Source of the DNA: Candidatus Limnocylindria bacterium | GTDB taxonomy: Bacteria; Chloroflexota; Limnocylindria; QHBO01 | DNA length: 64,000 nt | Direction: 5' to 3' | Assembly (NCBI GenBank): GCA_046715765.1 | Contig: JBKJYH010000143.1 | Location: forward strand, 4,584-68,583 | Shown here: positions 2,726 through 56,884 of the stretch, in pieces | Layout: each line of letters starts with the position of its first letter | Numbering within the stretch: position 1 is the first letter of the stretch | The notes under the pieces: generated by a model | Database searches by the model: none | What the model saw: the letters and a program-made list of their open reading frames with translations, nothing else | What the model was told of the DNA's origin: nothing | Position numbers and translations under genes: made by a program

Positions 2726-3597
2726 CTCCGCTGCTCCTCGACGCTCAGGCCAAGCTCAACCTGTCGCTGGCGGTGGTCGGCCGCCGGGCCGATGGATTCC
2801 ATCTGCTCGACAGCATCCTGGTCCTGCTCGACCTGGCGGATCGGCTGCTGCTCGCGCCTGGCAGTCCCGGGCTGCGGGTGGAGACCGCATCGACAATCGA
2901 CTCCGGCGACGTCCCGCCCCAGCCCGAGCGCAACCTGGCCTGGCGCGGGCTGCTGGCCGGGCTGGGGGGACAGCCCGCCACGGCGTTCCTCAGCCTGCAC
3001 AAGCAGATTCCATCGGGGGCCGGGCTGGGTGGGGGATCCTCCGATGCGGCCGCCGGCTACCGGCTGGGGCGTTCCTGGTCGGGGACTGCCACCGACCCGA
3101 CCGGCGCGGAGTGCGCGGCGCTGTCGGTGATCGGGGCGGATGTGCCGTTCTTCGCCTCGCTGCTGCTGGCGGCGCGGGTCCGCGGGATCGGTGAACGGGT
3201 AGAGGCCGTTCCGCAGCCTTCGCCAAGCTCCGCGGTGCTTGTCGTGCCTCCGTTCCGCCTAGCCACTGGGGCGGTTTACGCCGAATTGCGACCGGGCGAC
3301 TGGAGCGCGGATCCGCACGAGTCAGCCGGGGCGGGGCGGAACGACCTCCTGGCGCCGGCGCGCAGGCTGCGCCCCGAACTCGACGACCTGTTTCGCGCGG
3401 TTCGTGGCGCGGGCGGCGAGCCACGACTGACCGGTAGCGGGCCTACCGTCTTCAGCCTCGTCGACGACCCGGCACGGGCCGACGCGCTCGCCGCACGTCT
3501 CGCCGCGGACGGGCTCATGGTGATCCACACCCGCCTCGCCACGCAAGCGGCTAGGATTGCGACTCTGGTGGAGGAGCAGGAGGGTCTGAACGGATGA
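2722..3597 (+). CDS. ispE: 4-diphosphocytidyl-2-C-methyl-D-erythritol kinase
   Basis: ATG at 2722 overlaps the rsmA stop (ATGA). N-terminal AKLNLSL and the GHMP-kinase glycine-rich loop PSGAGLGGGSSDAAA are present. Confidence 0.8.
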   Translation: MTPLLLDAQAKLNLSLAVVGRRADGFHLLDSILVLLDLADRLLLAPGSPGLRVETASTIDSGDVPPQPERNLAWRGLLAGLGGQPATAFLSLHKQIPSGAGLGGGSSDAAAGYRLGRSWSGTATDPTGAECAALSVIGADVPFFASLLLAARVRGIGERVEAVPQPSPSSAVLVVPPFRLATGAVYAELRPGDWSADPHESAGAGRNDLLAPARRLRPELDDLFRAVRGAGGEPRLTGSGPTVFSLVDDPARADALAARLAADGLMVIHTRLATQAARIATLVEEQEGLNG

Positions 3598-15175: not shown

Positions 15176-17011
15176 ATGACATCAGGCATCGCCGCCGAGA
15201 TCAAGTCCAAGCTCCCCATCGTCGAAGTGATCGGCGAGAGCGTGCCGCTGCGGCGTGCCGGGACCGCTTACAAGGGTCTGTGCCCATTCCACAACGAGAA
15301 GACGCCCTCGTTCGTGGTCAGCCCTGATCGCGAGACATGGCATTGCTTCGGCTGCGGCGAGGGGGGCGACATCTTCACCTTCCTGATGCGTCGCGACGGG
15401 ATCGACTTCCGCGAGGCCCTGAGCCGGCTGGCCGAGAAGGCAGGGGTGGTGCTCTCGGAGCGGACTGCGACCGAGGATCGTCGCCGCAAGCGCCTGCGCG
15501 ATGCCCTGGAGGCTGCCATCGCGTGGTATCGCGAGGTCCTGCTCCAGGCACGCCTCGCCGAACCTGCGCGGGGCTATCTGACCGAACGCGGCCTGACCGC
15601 TGAGACGCTCGACTCCTTTAGCATCGGCTATGCGCCGGCAACCTACGACGCGCTGACCAGGCGGCTCATCGCCCGTGGCTTCAGCAACGACGACCTGGTC
15701 GGGGCGGGCCTCGCCTCGCCGTCCAACCGGGGGGGGGTGGTCGATCGCTTCCGTGGCCGGATCATCGTTCCGATTCGGGATGCCTCCGGGCGTGCCACCG
15801 GCCTCGGTGGCCGGATCATGCCCGGAGCCGACGGTCCGAAGTACCTCAACTCGCCGGCAGGGCCGCTCTTTGACAAGTCGCGCACCCTGTTCGGGATCGA
15901 CAAGGCCAAGAACGCCATTCGCAAGGAGAAGGTGGCGGTCATCGTCGAGGGTTACACCGATGTGATGGCCGCTCACCAGGCCGGCTTCGGCAACGTCGTC
16001 GCCAGCCTTGGCACCGCTCTGACCGCGGGACAGGTCGAGCTCGCCAACCGCTACGCCGACGCCGTGGCCCTTGCGTACGACGTTGATCTGGCCGGGGAGG
16101 CCGCCACCCAGCGTGGGCTGCTCGAGGAGCTCGGGCCCGATACGAGCGTCAGCAAGATCCGGGTGGTGCGGATCCCCGGCGCCAAGGACCCCGACGAGCT
16201 GATCCGCAGCGATCCGGAGGCATGGCGACGGGCTGTCGCCGATGCCAAGCCGGTGATCGAGTACTTCATTGACCGCGCTGTCGAAGATGTCGGCACCTCT
16301 TCGCTGGCCGCCAAGCGCGAACTGACCGGACGGGTGCTGGCGGTGATCAAGCGGGTGGGCGATCCGGTGGAGCGGGCGCTGTACATCCAGCGCCTCGCCC
16401 GGCTGGTGAGCGTCGAGGAGCGGGTGCTCAACGAGGCGCTCGGTCGTGAAACGCTGCGCCGGCCGGCCGCCTCGTTGCCGCCGCGACCCAATGCCGTGGG
16501 TGCGAGCAGTGCGGCGGTCGACCCGGTCGAGGGCGAGGCGCTGGGCCTGCTCCTGCGCTATCCGCGCCTGGTGAGTGAACTGCCGGATGAAAGTCTCCCG
16601 TTCGGGGACGCGACTGCCACCGCGCTGGTCGGCGAGTGGCGCCTCGCGGTGCAGGCAGCCGGCGAATCGTCCCTGCCGGACCTTGAGCGGTTTGTGGCCG
16701 GCCTCGATCCGGCGACCGCCGAGATGGCGCGCACGGTTCTGCACCGGCTGGCCGGGGCAGCTGACGCGCCGCGCCTAGAGGCCGAGCAGGCGACCAATGA
16801 ACTGCGGACCTGCCTGCTCCGGCTGCGAATAGCCCGGATCGACGAATCATTGCGAGACGGCCGCCTGCTGCTCGAGGAAGCACAGCGCGACCAGGATCAC
16901 GGCCGATTGCAGGCCCTCGAAACACAGATCACCGCGCTCGGCCGACGCAAGGCCGAGGCGACCCGCAAGTTGCGTGAGCCGGCCGAAGTGGCCGGTCCCG
17001 GAAGGAGTTGA
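15176..17011 (+). CDS. dnaG: DNA primase
   Basis: 611 aa with a zinc ribbon ([11 protein letters not shown]...HCFGCG), TOPRIM domain and a C-terminal helicase-binding region. Confidence 0.9.
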
Positions 17012-17013
17012 AC

Positions 17014-18795
<1,782 letters not shown>

Positions 18796-23611: not shown

Positions 23612-24577
23612 TCAGGCCTCGCGCGTGACCCGCAGGATGGCGATCGCGTTCTCGAGTCGCAGCTTCGTGACGGTCAGGGTCCTCGCAAGGTTGTCCCGGT
23701 TCGTCTCCGGGATCTCGTCGATCAGGTCGCGCTGACTGATCAGCTCGACCAGTTCGTCCACCGCCTCGCTCAGCCGGGCCCGGGTGTTCACCAGCCGATC
23801 GTCGGCGACCTTGGCCGCCGCCACGATCCCGGCGCGGGTCCGGGCGCGACGCGGCGTCTTGGCGCCCCGGGCTTTCGGGGTGGCCGAGCCGGTGATCACG
23901 CGCAACTTGGCGAGGGTTAACTCCCCATCGGCTACCTTGCGTGCGAGGCGGCGGCGGGTCTTCTCATCGGTGATCCGCATCAGTTCGTACGCATGGCTCA
24001 GGGTGTCCTTGCGCACGGACACCAGGTCGCGGATCTCGGGCGGCGCATCGGCCAGGCGCAGCCGGTTCTCCACGTAGCCCTTGTCCTTGCCGATCTTGGT
24101 TGCGAGTTGGCGGACTGAGAACCCGAGTTCCGTCATCTTGCGGAACATGGCGGCCTCTTCGAGCGGGGTCACGTCCTCGCGCTGGAGATTCTCGATGATC
24201 GAAACCTCGAGCGCCGTCTCCTCGTCGAACTCGACGACGATGGCGGGGATCGACTCGCGCTCCGCCAGCCGTGATGCCCGCCAGCGACGCTCGCCTGCAA
24301 TCAACTCGTAGCTGTTGCCCACGGGGCGGACCAGGACAGGCTGGAGGACCCCGTGCTGCCGGATCGAATCGGCCAGTTCGGCGAGCGACTCCTCCTCGTA
24401 CGAGAGGCGAGGCTGGGCAGGGTTGGGCAGGATCCGATCGACCGGAACTTCTTTGATCTGGGCGTGGGTCGCACGCGACTCGATCAGCGACACCACGCCC
24501 GGTGCGAGGTCGACGTTCTTCGCCTCGTCAAAGAGTCGGTGGATGTTCTCCCGAAATGCGGGACGCTTGCTAGCCAA
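23612..24577 (-). CDS. parB: chromosome partitioning protein ParB/Spo0J
   Basis: 321 aa. ParB box GERRWRA, HTH, and a C-terminal dimerisation region. Confidence 0.9.
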   Translation of the reverse strand: MASKRPAFRENIHRLFDEAKNVDLAPGVVSLIESRATHAQIKEVPVDRILPNPAQPRLSYEEESLAELADSIRQHGVLQPVLVRPVGNSYELIAGERRWRASRLAERESIPAIVVEFDEETALEVSIIENLQREDVTPLEEAAMFRKMTELGFSVRQLATKIGKDKGYVENRLRLADAPPEIRDLVSVRKDTLSHAYELMRITDEKTRRRLARKVADGELTLAKLRVITGSATPKARGAKTPRRARTRAGIVAAAKVADDRLVNTRARLSEAVDELVELISQRDLIDEIPETNRDNLARTLTVTKLRLENAIAILRVTREA

Positions 24578-25337
24578 GGTCGATCACCTCTCTGGCCAAG
24601 TCGCGGAACGCGCGCGCCGCCGCGGAATTGGTCGCGTAATCGGTGATGGGTTTGCCGGTGAGTGGCGCCTCACCGAACTTCACCGTGTTCTTGATCATGG
24701 TCGAGAAAACCCGATGGTCACCCAGCTCCCGAAGGTTCTGCAACATCTCGCGCGCCAGCACGGTTCGCCCGTCATAGAAGGTCGCCAGCAGGCCGAGGAT
24801 CTCGAGGTCGTGGTTGAGCTTGAGCCGAATCGTGTTTATCACCTTGATCAACGCGGTCAGGCCCTTGATGGCGTAGTACTGGGTCTGGACCGGGATGATC
24901 ACCCGCGAGGAGGCCACCAGGCCGTTGATCGTGAGCAGCCCGAGGGTCGGGGGGCAGTCGATGATTATCACGTCGAACTGGCGATCCGCCCAGCCAGAGA
25001 GCGCGTCACGCAACACCATCTCGCGACCGATGGCGCTGAACAGCTCCACCTCGGTCGAGGCCAGCTCCAGGGTCGCCGGTGCCACTGACAGGCCGGCGGT
25101 CTGCGTCGGCCGGACGATCTCCTCCACTGGAAGCCGATCGTCGCCGATCACGTCCGCCATCGATTGATTCACGTCCGACAGCGAAACGCCGAGGCCGACG
25201 GTGAGGTTGGCCTGTGGATCGATGTCCACGCACAGCACGCGGTAGCCGAGTTCGGCCAATGCGCCGCCGAGGTTGATGGCCGTGGTCGTCTTCCCGACGC
25301 CGCCCTTCTGATTTGCGATGGCAATGACCTTGCTCAC
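24570..25337 (-). CDS. parA: chromosome partitioning ATPase ParA/Soj
   Basis: Deviant Walker A KGGVGKTT. The GTG at 25337 gives MSKVIAIANQKGG. The ORF-track start at 25451 is an upstream extension. Confidence 0.9.
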   Translation of the reverse strand: MSKVIAIANQKGGVGKTTTAINLGGALAELGYRVLCVDIDPQANLTVGLGVSLSDVNQSMADVIGDDRLPVEEIVRPTQTAGLSVAPATLELASTEVELFSAIGREMVLRDALSGWADRQFDVIIIDCPPTLGLLTINGLVASSRVIIPVQTQYYAIKGLTALIKVINTIRLKLNHDLEILGLLATFYDGRTVLAREMLQNLRELGDHRVFSTMIKNTVKFGEAPLTGKPITDYATNSAAARAFRDLAREVIDLG

Positions 25338-25429
25338 GGACGAACCCTTTGCGCTGGGCGGGATTGGGGGAGTGCGCGGATGCGCTCCAGCTGATGATAC
25401 CGGCGCGCGAGGTCGGCCGATGCCCAGAG

Positions 25430-25438
25430 TTATCCACA
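25430..25438 (+). promoter_or_regulatory. perfect DnaA box TTATCCACA in the parA / tRNA-Met divergent spacer
   Basis: Exact 9/9 match to the consensus DnaA box. It is a single copy. Confidence 0.4.
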
Positions 25439-25505
25439 AGGTCGTCGGCACGACGCGTCTGTGTGCAAAGACGAGGCCCTATACTCGGACTTGTCCACCA
25501 TCATC

Positions 25506-27151: not shown

Positions 27152-27180
27152 CTGTCCGTGCACAAAGACAGCGACCCGCG

Positions 27181-38212: not shown

Positions 38213-38526
38213 TGGAGGCGGCCGGACGGCCGCGGACGCGATCGCCGAAAGGCGGCGTTCGAGGAAAGTCCGGGCTCCACAGAGCAGGCTCGCGGGTAAC
38301 GCCCGTCCGCCGTGAGGCGAGGACCAGCGCCACAGTGACGATGCCCGCGCAAGCGGGAGTGAAACGCGGCAAGCTCGAGCCGGAGCAAGACCGAATAGGA
38401 GGGCGAAACGCGGCGTTCGCGCCGCAGCAGGTGGCTCGCTCAGCCCTCGGGTAGGTCGCTCAGATGGATGGCCGTCGCGGCGCCAGTCGGCGCCGGCACA
38501 GGACCCGGCTTACAGGCCGCTCTCCG
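38213..38526 (+). ncRNA. rnpB: RNase P RNA (bacterial type A)
   Basis: Conserved P4 strand GAGGAAAGTCCGGGCTCC, GGGTAACGCCC, GTGAAACGCGG and 3' ACAGGACCCGGCTTA. P1 pairing between 5' ctggaggcggcc and 3' ggccgctctccgg. Boundaries are within about 5 nt. Confidence 0.85.
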
Positions 38527-38532
38527 GGGAAC

Positions 38533-40631: not shown

Positions 40632-40659
40632 TTGACGGGGCGAGCACGCCCTGTAGAAT
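40632..40659 (+). promoter_or_regulatory. Pmra promoter: TTGACG - 16 nt - TAGAAT
   Basis: Near-consensus -35 (40632-40637) and -10 (40654-40659), about 65 nt upstream of the mraZ ATG. Confidence 0.5.
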
Positions 40660-40666
40660 GGCGCCC

Positions 40667-40716
40667 TGTGGCCCAAAATGGGGTCAAGTGGGGAAGAATG
40701 GTAGACAGGCAGGACG
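40667..40716 (+). promoter_or_regulatory. MraZ-operator-like direct repeats (GTGG / TGGGG / GTGGGG / TGG at 10-bp period)
   Basis: ctGTGGcccaaaaTGGGGtcaaGTGGGGaagaaTGGtag lies immediately downstream of the Pmra -10. Confidence 0.5.
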
Positions 40717-54215: not shown

Positions 54216-55454
54216 GTGGAACGAGAGACGGTGCTGGTCGGCATCGACGTCGGGACGACCAAGGTGACGACCCTCATCGGCGAGGTCGGCCGCGACGGTC
54301 AGGTCTCGATCCTGGGCTACGGGATCGAACCCTCGGCCGGCATGAAGAAGGGGATGGTCGCCAACATCGAGCAGACCGTCAGCTCGATCGCGAACTCCCT
54401 GGAGAAGGCCGAGCGCCTGTCCGGCTACAAGATCTCATCGGCCTTCGTGGGCGTCGGCGGCAGCCAGATCAGCAGCCAGAACAGTCGCGGGGTAGTGGCC
54501 GTCTCCGGGCACAAGCGGGAGGTCACCCGCGAGGACGTGGCGCGCGCTACCGAGGCCGCCAAGGCGATCCAGATCCCGTCGAACCGCGAGATGCTGCACG
54601 TGATCCCACGCGGCTACATCCTGGATGGCCAGGAGGGGATAAAGGACCCGCTCGGGATGAGCGCGGTGCGCCTCGAGGTCGAGACCCATTTGGCCTCCGG
54701 GTCGGCCACCGCCATCCAGAACCTGAGCAAGTGCATCGCCAACGCCAATGTCCAGATCGACGAACTGGTGGTCAACTCCCTGGCCGCCGCCGAAGCCACC
54801 CTCAACGACACTGAGAAGGAGCTCGGGGTGCTGGTGGCCGACATCGGGGGCGGCACGACCGACCTCGCGATCTTCACCGATGGCGCCGCGTATCACACGG
54901 CCGTGCTGCCGGTCGGCGCGATCAACGTCACCAACGACGTGGCGATCGGGTTGCGCACCAGCCTCGACCTGGCCGAGGAGATCAAGATCAAGCACGGAAC
55001 GGCCCACATGCCCGACGTGCAACCCGAGGAGCTGCTCAGCGTCGCGGTCCTGGGCGAGCGCGGCGGGCAGACGATCCAGCGCCGCAAGCTGTGCGAGGTG
55101 ATCGAGGCCCGGATGAGCGAGATCTACTGGCTCATCGGCGAGGAGATCAAGCGCTCGGGCCATAGCGGCCTGCTGCCGGCCGGGGTGGTGCTGACCGGCG
55201 GCGGCGCGCGGCTGGCCGGGGCGGCCGACCTCGCCCGTGAAGCCCTGAACATGCCGGTCCGGATCGGTCAACCGCAGGGGGTCGGCGGCCTGATGGACCA
55301 CCTCTCCAACCCCGCCTTCGCGACTCCCATCGGACTGCTGCTGTGGGGCGCCCGCCACATCGGGGGCGAGCCGATCGGGTTCGCCGCCGGAGGGCCGGGG
55401 AATGGTCCGGTGGCACGCGCCTGGGACTGGCTGCGCGGCATGTTCCCGGGCTGA
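54216..55454 (+). CDS. ftsA: cell division protein FtsA
   Basis: GTG start after GGAGG. Actin-like ATPase (VGIDVGTTKV; DIGGGTTD). Confidence 0.9.
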   Translation: MERETVLVGIDVGTTKVTTLIGEVGRDGQVSILGYGIEPSAGMKKGMVANIEQTVSSIANSLEKAERLSGYKISSAFVGVGGSQISSQNSRGVVAVSGHKREVTREDVARATEAAKAIQIPSNREMLHVIPRGYILDGQEGIKDPLGMSAVRLEVETHLASGSATAIQNLSKCIANANVQIDELVVNSLAAAEATLNDTEKELGVLVADIGGGTTDLAIFTDGAAYHTAVLPVGAINVTNDVAIGLRTSLDLAEEIKIKHGTAHMPDVQPEELLSVAVLGERGGQTIQRRKLCEVIEARMSEIYWLIGEEIKRSGHSGLLPAGVVLTGGGARLAGAADLAREALNMPVRIGQPQGVGGLMDHLSNPAFATPIGLLLWGARHIGGEPIGFAAGGPGNGPVARAWDWLRGMFPG

Positions 55455-55495
55455 CCGCCCGATTGGCGCGACCGCGCCCGATGCAGCCGCGCGGC

Positions 55496-55526
55496 TGTGG
55501 ATAAGTCCCGAAAGAGATGTGGATAA
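55496..55526 (+). promoter_or_regulatory. two perfect DnaA boxes (TGTGGATAA, which is TTATCCACA on the complement) in direct orientation, 22 bp apart, in the ftsA-ftsZ spacer
   Basis: Exact 9-mers at 55496-55504 and 55518-55526 in a locally AT-rich stretch. A TAGAAT hexamer follows at 55555-55560. Confidence 0.5.
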
Positions 55527-55624
55527 AAACCCCGACACGGAGCCGCGCGGATCGGTAGAATCGGTCAAACCCGCGTGCCGACGGGTTGCCACGCCCTCCA
55601 TACGAGCAGGAGAGAAGGACCCCC

Positions 55625-56884
55625 ATGCCGCTCCGGTCGGACGCAGAGCATTTCGCATTGATCAAGGTCATCGGCGTGGGCGGTGGCGGCAGCAACGCCG
55701 TGAACCGGATGATCCGCGCCGAGATGATGGGCGTCGAGTTCATCGCGGTGAACACCGACGCGCAGGCGCTGTTGCAGAGCGATGCGCCGCACAAGATCCG
55801 GATCGGTGACAAGTTGACCCGCGGCCTCGGGGCCGGAGCCGACCCCGGCGTCGGGCAGCGCGCCGCCGAGGAGGACAGCGAGAAGATCTACGAGGCGCTC
55901 AAGGACGCCGACATGATCTTCATCACCGCCGGGATGGGTGGGGGGACCGGGTCTGGCGCGGCGCATGTCATCGCCGAGATTGCCAAGGACCTGGGAGCCC
56001 TGACGGTCGGTGTCATCACCAAGCCGTTCAGCTTCGAAGGCGTGCGGCGCAAGTTGGTTGCCGAGCAGTTCAGTGAGTTGCTCAAGGAGAAGTGCGACAC
56101 CCTGATCACCATCCCCAACGACCGCCTGCGCGAAGTCGTGGACAAGAAGACCTCGATCCTGGACGCCTTCCGGGTGGTGGACGACGTGCTGCGCCAGGGC
56201 GTGCAGGGGATCAGCGATCTGATCACCGTCCCGGGCCTGATCAACCTCGACTTCGCCGACGTCAAGACGATCATGCGCGACGCGGGTTCGAGCATGATGG
56301 GGATCGGGGTCGGCACAGGCGACAACCGGGCGGTGGACGCTGCCCGCGCCGCGATCATGAGCCCGTTGCTCGAGGTGAACATCACCGGCGCGCGCGGGAT
56401 CCTGTTCAACGTCACTGGCGGCAGCGACCTGGGCCTGTTCGAGGTCAACGAGGCCGCCGAGGTGATCAAGGAGGCCGCCGACCCGGAGGCCAACATCATC
56501 TTCGGAACGGTGATCGACGACCGGATGCGGGACGAGGTCAAGGTAACCGTCATCGCCACCGGGTTCGATGCCAGCAAGAAGATTCGTCAGCCGGCCCACA
56601 AGGCGGAAGCCGGTGCCAGGGTAGGCAGCGGAGTCGAGGAATCCCTCGACGCTCGCAGCCGCGAGATCCTGGCTGAGATCGAGCGCGAGCGCGCCGAGCG
56701 CCGCGCACTTGAGAGCCAGATGCCGGAGCCCTCGCCGTTCGCGGCCGAGGAGCGGTCAGAGACGCGCACAGAGCGCCAGGAGCGCACCGAGCGCCTGGCG
56801 ATCCCGGTCCGATCGGCCGAGCGGTCGGCCTTCGGCGACACCGACCTCGACATCCCTGCCTTCCTGCGCCGCAAGGACGGGTAG
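55625..56884 (+). CDS. ftsZ: cell division GTPase FtsZ
   Basis: ATG at 55625 after GGAGAGAAGGA. GGGTGSG tubulin signature and a conserved C-terminal peptide (DIPAFLRRK). Confidence 0.95.

Follow-up and report, generated by a model that had tools for sequence, protein, structure and literature searches.

Two sequences matching the DnaA box lie between the cell-division genes ftsA and ftsZ in a 64-kb stretch of bacterial DNA (hereafter the window, meaning the whole of the stretch that was analysed). The question that they raise is whether they control the transcription of ftsZ and whether the initiator protein DnaA is what reads them. FtsZ-based retrieval placed the window in the Chloroflexota, class Limnocylindria, the relatives all being uncultured and metagenome-assembled. 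Limnocylindria are an abundant uncultured class of soil and freshwater Chloroflexota, a phylum for which we know of no cell-cycle regulators. The boxes are surrounded by a complete dcw cluster (mraZ, ftsI, mur genes, ddl, ftsQ, DUF1290, ftsA, ftsZ, yggS and yggT), and the ftsZ product, whose N-terminus reads MPLRS..., matches database FtsZ proteins over 100% of their length. Long minus-strand ORFs overlapping the spacer (54435-55658 and 55147-55812) fail the GC3 filter and were set aside as high-GC artefacts. Coordinates of the elements discussed are collected in Table 1.

Table 1. Elements of the ftsZ and parAB regions, in window coordinates.
Feature	Position	Strand	Sequence or description	Basis or remark
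parB	23612-24583	minus	parA-parB operon	ParB by Pfam
parA	24570-25338	minus		ParA by Pfam
parA -10	25394-25399	minus	TATCAT	30 nt downstream of third box
Third perfect box	25430-25438	plus (TTATCCACA); minus, toward parA (TGTGGATAA)	exact TTATCCACA on the plus strand	exact match
Degenerate box	25491-25499	minus	GGTGGACAA (TTGTCCACC on the plus strand)	parA box follows 61 bp downstream
ftsA	54216-55454	plus		Pfam FtsA, SHS2_FTSA
Box 1	55496-55504	plus	TGTGGATAA toward ftsZ; consensus TTATCCACA on the minus strand	exact match
Box 2	55518-55526	plus	TGTGGATAA, orientation as box 1	exact match
-35-like hexamer	55532-55537	plus	CCGACA	promoter scan; weak, 4/6 vs TTGACA
-10 hexamer	55556-55561	plus	TAGAAT	promoter scan; ftsZ-proximal promoter
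Leader hairpin	55568-55587	plus	AACCCGCG...CGGGTT	5' end of leader; stem sequence conserved
Ribosome-binding site and ftsZ start codon	55608-55627	plus	AGGAGAGAAGGA; ATG at 55625	read from sequence
ftsZ	55625-56884	plus		homologues named FtsZ; PF00091 (Tubulin) and PF12327 (FtsZ_C) on identical database protein

Both boxes fall within the 170-bp ftsA-ftsZ spacer. They share one orientation and lie 22 bp apart from start to start, leaving a 13-bp gap (TGTCCATAA denotes the box-mutant form of TGTGGATAA). The 9-mer TTATCCACA is the near-universal high-affinity DnaA-box consensus (PMC8203912, PMC4285127), and all three boxes of the window match it at nine positions out of nine. Three exact copies in 64 kb compare with 0.07 expected from dinucleotide-preserving shuffles, none of 100 of which contained three; a mononucleotide estimate gives 0.069 per window. 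Tolerating one mismatch added a single site, TGATCCACA at 3521, within a coding region. A first-pass annotation had reported the two co-oriented perfect boxes, their 22-bp spacing, a match beyond chance and a total of three perfect copies with the third at 25430, and on all these points the counts and positions bear it out. Its description of the surroundings as AT-rich is true in a modest sense, the segment 55490-55532 having 51% GC against 66% for the spacer and 69% for the window.

A consensus scan of the interval 55300-55750 returned a sole sigma-70-like promoter, CCGACA-18-TAGAAT (55532-55561), and none in 50 shuffled sequences. Its -35-like hexamer begins 5 bp past the end of box 2. From the consensus match, transcription of ftsZ would start near 55568, which would put the centre of box 1 at about -68 and that of box 2 at about -46. 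The mraZ promoter, TTGACG-17-TAGAAT, has an identical hexamer, which makes TAGAAT a credible -10 here; unlike the ftsZ-proximal promoter, it has a good -35, TTGACG. A terminator scan of the plus strand found no terminator after ftsA, so that the ftsZ-proximal promoter probably adds to read-through from upstream.

The ftsZ region was compared among Limnocylindria: four species-level genomes with FtsZ 84-89% identical to that of the window (L001-L004); eleven more ftsZ loci obtained through exact-protein look-up of database FtsZ sequences (L161-L171; 86-92% identical); and some 30 distant loci (L005-L034; 62-77% identical). The arrangement TGTGGAnAA-N13-TGTGGAnAA-N28/29-TAGAAT is present in 14 of the 15 close relatives (FtsZ 84-92% identical; 11 distinct sequences). 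In a gapless alignment anchored on the boxes and the -10 hexamer, the invariant or near-invariant columns are confined to the two boxes, the bases C.AC at the -35 hexamer, TAGAATCG (invariant in all 11 distinct relatives) and the ACCCG...CGGGT hairpin. Nothing of the -35 hexamer beyond C.AC is conserved, and there is essentially no conservation among these 11 sequences in the 13-nt gap, in the flanks or in the remainder of the leader. Close relatives thus keep the boxes although the spacer around them has diverged, the reverse of what the first-pass annotation had named as grounds for abandoning its proposal. The link that it had drawn between the boxes and TAGAAT likewise holds, the distance from box 2 to the -10 being fixed at 28-29 nt in the relatives. 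An intermediate low-affinity 9-mer within the 13-nt gap, at 11-bp phasing, was looked for in the 11 distinct relatives and showed no conservation.

Variation inside the boxes is narrowly restricted. Among the 11 distinct relatives with the standard layout, box 1 reads TGTGGA[T/C]AA; box 2 reads TGTGGA[T/A/G/C]AA and keeps its invariant 13-nt gap to box 1 in the 14 of 15. All substitutions in the 11, in either box, fall at position 3 of TTNTCCACA, giving TT[A/G/T/C]TCCACA, and each standard-layout relative retains at least one perfect TTATCCACA at ftsZ. Position 3 is where perfect DnaA boxes are documented to differ from one organism to another, for example TT(G/C)TCCACA in actinomycetes (PMC4285127). 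In weaker boxes DnaA also tolerates changes at position 5. The one exception to the layout, L171, has three GTGGA-type boxes with different spacing and distance. The simplest form, with just two perfect boxes starting 11-41 bp past the ftsA stop codon, is found in the window and in L163/L164, its nearest relative (92% FtsZ identity). Most other relatives (L001-L004, L161, L162 and L165-L168, not the window or L163/L164) carry in addition an inverted pair some 25-60 bp upstream of box 1, of the form TGTGGA(G/C), 12-14 nt, (G/C)TCCAC; their ftsZ spacers therefore contain three to four box-like elements.

The hairpin at the 5' end of the predicted leader reads ACCCG...CGGGT in the window, L001-L004 and L161-L171, with the stem kept and the loop variable. 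Its folding energy, -9.3 kcal/mol, is unexceptional relative to shuffles (z = -1.0), and single folds were no better than shuffles in three of five sequences. RNAalifold, in whose input the variable loop was mis-aligned, returned no supported structure, and no Rfam family matched the ftsA-ftsZ spacer at E <= 1. The hairpin may stabilise the 5' end of the mRNA.

In the distant Limnocylindria the corresponding position holds a TA[G/T]A[C/A]T hexamer, and the boxes are absent. With up to one mismatch allowed, 7.25 kb of sequence upstream of ftsZ in L005-L034 gave a single match, in L019; with up to two, there was no enrichment (0.55/kb vs 0.50/kb elsewhere). This restricts the ftsZ boxes to a single subclade. 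The promoter itself would be old and the boxes an addition made in that subclade, and box input must be dispensable for ftsZ expression as such.

The third perfect box precedes parA by about 95 bp; the neighbouring tRNA-Met gene is divergent. The box was followed through 80 metagenomic parB loci (L081-L160), and is kept in 46 of the 48 relatives whose contigs include the region upstream of parA. It reads TGTGGATAA in 44 of these loci and TGTGGACAA in two (on the other strand, TTATCCACA and TTGTCCACA, respectively). A -10-like hexamer follows 28-30 nt downstream in 45 of the 46 by the script's pattern; in the remaining locus, L155, the hexamer reads TAGGCT, which falls outside that pattern. At the -35 position the relatives have a TGGACC-like hexamer 6 nt past the box. 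The set that retains the box extends down to about 62-68% ParA identity, absence being limited to the two most distant loci, L158 and L159. The parAB and ftsZ regions thus have an architecture in common: a box, 5-6 nt, a weak -35-like element, 17-18 nt and a -10 hexamer. As judged from this arrangement, the third box marks the predicted parAB promoter with the same geometry as at ftsZ, and it is more widely conserved than the ftsZ pair. L148-L155, which form a more distant parA group, have two additional upstream boxes, of which one is inverted (TTATCCAC, ATGTCCACA, GGTGAACAA).

The degenerate box between parA and the tRNA-Met gene sits directly downstream of the divergent tRNA-Met -10 hexamer (TATACT, 25481-25486), over the likely start site, and is conserved as GGTGGACAA in about 45 metagenomic relatives. 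The protein that reads the perfect boxes might bind there too and repress the tRNA promoter, or might bridge to the parA box 61 bp away.

These two settings account for every occurrence of the motif in the related DNA searched. In 531 kb of Limnocylindria loci, all 52 copies of TGTGGA[T/C]AA were upstream of ftsZ or parA; a base-composition estimate predicts about 1.7 chance occurrences outside both contexts, and none was found. In a further 66 kb of related DNA, all copies of TGTGGANAA were again in ftsZ or parA promoter contexts. The 9-mer is accordingly not one that is common at random positions, which the first-pass annotation had named as one ground for refuting its reading. That the motifs are conserved cis-elements tied to the promoters of two cell-cycle genes is, in our judgement, very likely.

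What binds them is a separate matter. DnaA appears to be the most economical candidate, because of the nine-out-of-nine consensus match together with the DnaA-like pattern of substitution, because single 9-mers in either orientation fit the binding of one monomer per site, and because both ftsZ and parAB have precedent for control by DnaA. The extra boxes of some relatives come in either orientation, as TGTGGAG..N..GTCCAC at ftsZ and as TTATCCAC or ATGTCCACA at the distant parA loci. A tblastn search of the window and the 160 loci L001-L160, in which the query was an approximate B. subtilis DnaA sequence, gave no match to dnaA. We think it on balance probable that the boxes form a DnaA-bound operator controlling the ftsZ promoter. 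Of the coupling of ftsZ to DnaA that had originally been proposed, the conserved boxes and their fixed link to the promoter stand as observations, while DnaA as binder and the direction of the effect we infer. Since the boxes are conserved in relatives and the module recurs at parAB, replication is probably wired here to both division and segregation.

A mechanism consistent with these features would run as follows. DnaA would bind at about -68 (box 1) and at about -46 (box 2) of the sigma-A-type promoter CCGACA-18-TAGAAT, the two sites facing one side of the helix because they are two helical turns apart. The promoter-proximal molecule, directly upstream of a poor -35 element, would contact and stabilise RNA polymerase, and transcription of ftsZ from this promoter would rise with DnaA occupancy, on top of read-through from ftsA. 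At parAB, the module of one perfect box, 28-30 nt and a -10 hexamer would place segregation under the same DnaA input. The effect on the ftsZ promoter is probably activation, given that the boxes lie upstream of a weak -35 element, on one helical face and at strict distance and orientation. Repression, or a switch dependent on DnaA concentration, is the alternative, the sign of regulation being deduced from promoter layout either way. More tentatively, and with rather less confidence than we place in the operator itself, the Limnocylindria may possess a minimal DnaA-centred regulon built from one portable module. This module would consist of an oriented perfect box placed some 46 bp before the transcription start, at a promoter whose -35 element is weak; it would be ancient at parAB, and recruited and doubled at ftsZ only in the subclade of the window.

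The strongest competitor to DnaA is another global cell-cycle regulator, whose specificity coincides with the DnaA box or which competes with DnaA for it. The motif occurs at two promoters only, and never as an origin-like cluster, in about 600 kb, and its strict orientation and distance to the -10 hexamer are typical of a dedicated transcription factor. Such a regulator would nevertheless leave unexplained both the full match to the DnaA box and the confinement of variation to the position that DnaA tolerates, and independent single 9-mers in both orientations do not resemble a dyad or a tight direct-repeat operator. We regard it as unlikely, and the known candidates, MraZ and WhiA, do not fit. 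An MraZ operator would show at least three direct repeats of the GTGGG type, recurring about every 10 bp, where mraZ is transcribed from; the ftsZ boxes differ in sequence, have a 22-bp period and lack a middle repeat. The window's own MraZ-type repeats (GTGGG, 10-bp period) are at 40658-40695, downstream of the mraZ promoter. The WhiA-type GACAC at 55534 is not conserved in relatives. A CcrM-type GANTC in TAGAATC was also considered, and it is lost where the -10 hexamer is TATACT.

The mraZ region was recorded separately. The segment 40633-40700 holds a textbook promoter, TTGACG-17-TAGAAT, and after it the repeats GTGGC, TGGGG and GTGGG, which recur about every 10 bp. This layout is the one to be expected of an MraZ operator heading the dcw cluster.

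Another possibility is that DnaA does bind the boxes, to no effect on ftsZ, and that they serve as a reservoir for titration, like the datA cluster of DnaA boxes, or as a site of chromosome organisation near the partition locus. In E. coli, boxes upstream of ftsZ bind DnaA and do not regulate ftsZ (PMC8203912), and stable DnaA-binding sites of B. subtilis are reported to be intergenic (PMC2533591). Moreover, parAB and parS-like palindromes lie 30 kb away in the window, which may therefore be origin-proximal. Titration, however, gives no reason for a fixed orientation and a distance of 28-30 nt to the -10 hexamer, at two unlinked promoters and in dozens of genomes. There are only two boxes at ftsZ, an AT-rich unwinding element is lacking, and the GC skew does not invert within the window; we hold this explanation to be quite unlikely. 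Nor is the site an origin or a cluster like datA. An oriC would be recognised by at least four to five boxes, by an AT-rich unwinding element and by inversion of the GC skew, and a datA-type site by a dense cluster of boxes. Here the GC content falls locally to no less than 51%, over about 40 bp, and the cumulative GC skew rises overall from 0.02 to 0.35 across the window, with small local dips and no sustained reversal.

The boxes could also be DNA of the UP-element kind, touched by the C-terminal domains of the RNA polymerase alpha subunits. Box 2 and its trailing A-tract (GATAAAAAC) would lie at about -50 to -38, the location of proximal UP subsites, and they are the principal AT-rich stretch of a genome with 69% GC. 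Yet the G-rich TGTGG belongs to the invariant part of the motif, and variation occurs at the A/T position 7, where C and G are also found. The UP region would not reach as far as box 1, at about -68, and the recurrence of the identical 9-mer at parA is not expected of a degenerate A/T-rich element. Taken together, these points make an UP element very improbable. Chance occurrence without function has the small size of the motif in its favour and nothing else, and is scarcely credible, being refuted by the excess over expectation and by the in-place conservation of the boxes amid diverged surroundings.

The operator reading can be set against systems in which DnaA boxes have been studied. The ftsZ promoter of Caulobacter crescentus has two DnaA boxes and is activated by DnaA (Fernandez-Fernandez et al. 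2011, PMC3193534). The locus described here resembles it in the two boxes at the ftsZ promoter and in the proposed logic, by which the initiator would raise transcription of a division gene. It does so also in the presence of a partition-related gene in the regulon, mipZ in Caulobacter and parAB here. The two bacteria belong to unrelated phyla, Caulobacter being an alphaproteobacterium. The Caulobacter high-affinity box is TGATCCACA (PMC4285127) rather than the canonical TTATCCACA found here. Furthermore, control in Caulobacter is embedded in the CtrA/GcrA/CcrM circuit. The present boxes are 22 bp apart and abut the predicted -35 element.

For the box at parA, the closest parallel is the gidAB-parAB operon of P. 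aeruginosa, which is regulated by DnaA boxes in oriCII (PMC13438810). Each has DnaA boxes ahead of its parAB promoter, which ties initiation to segregation in P. aeruginosa and, on the present reading, in the window. The P. aeruginosa boxes, however, are in an origin-associated region upstream of gidA, in contrast to the single perfect box upstream of parA itself in the window. That box has a tRNA-Met gene and a parS-like palindrome beside it, and neither gidAB nor an origin signature.

At the nrdAB promoter of E. coli, high-affinity boxes have been proposed to activate transcription by stabilising RNA polymerase, and the model for nrdAB and dnaA, the classical DnaA-regulated promoters, allows for a switch to repression at high DnaA-ATP (PMC8203912). 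The ftsZ arrangement is like these promoters in having high-affinity boxes just upstream of the core promoter; it differs in the target genes, and in that no third, DnaA-ATP-specific low-affinity box over the core promoter is conserved. A caution comes from E. coli itself, in which three DnaA boxes upstream of ftsZ play no role in ftsZ transcription (PMC8203912, citing Masters 1989 and Smith et al. 1996). Sequence on its own is therefore not proof of ftsZ control. There too, DnaA-box matches precede ftsZ within the dcw cluster, and it was sequence that prompted the hypothesis. The E. coli boxes, however, are inside the ftsQA coding sequence and were not backed by such a footprint, whereas those of the window are intergenic, stand at a fixed distance from a conserved -10 hexamer and form a conserved footprint. 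What sets the present case apart from Caulobacter, P. aeruginosa and nrdAB, besides the phylum and the use of the canonical box, is a compact, repeated module with the box at about -46, recent at ftsZ and widely conserved at parAB.

DnaA has been established as a transcription factor for division and segregation genes in few cultured models, namely Caulobacter (ftsZ and mipZ), B. subtilis (ftsL) and P. aeruginosa (parAB). Binding of DnaA to the B. subtilis ftsL promoter is said to have been shown in vivo, and Hottes et al. reportedly described the Caulobacter ftsZ promoter as activated by DnaA in 2005. The principle of DnaA boxes at ftsZ and parAB promoters is already known from Caulobacter and P. 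aeruginosa, and no new category of mechanism is involved. What the comparative data provide is an unusually clean prediction, one oriented box-promoter module at ftsZ and parAB and nowhere else in the roughly 600 kb examined. If correct, it would mean that cell-cycle transcription driven by the initiator also exists in Terrabacteria other than the Firmicutes, and would offer a simple two-promoter system for studying activation of transcription by DnaA. Were the regulon reading also to hold, it would represent a dated regulon expansion, in which initiation was coupled first to segregation and then to division.

Next to the parAB module lies the parS-like palindrome GTCTTTGCGCAAAGAC. The 16-bp family to which this sequence belongs (GTCTTTGC|GCAAAGAC) has three copies in 3.2 kb, where 0.10 would be expected: inside parB (24005-24020), in the spacer that separates parA from tRNA-Met, flanked by the two DnaA-like boxes (25457-25472), and after a carboxyltransferase gene (27154-27169). 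Their positions are conserved in L081-L155, at about -2600, -900 and +551 from the parB start, and the copies are often perfect. The canonical parS, TGTTTCACGTGAAACA, is absent from the window at up to three mismatches, and the palindrome is a candidate for a non-canonical parS of Limnocylindria. ParB acting through parS was rejected as the reader of the boxes, the canonical site being absent and the local palindrome unrelated to the box. Elsewhere in the window are two ordinary housekeeping genes, a bacterial class A RNase P RNA (38214-38529, 148.7 bits) and a gene for an RpoD-like primary sigma factor of 595 aa (17008-18795), assigned from its translated sequence.
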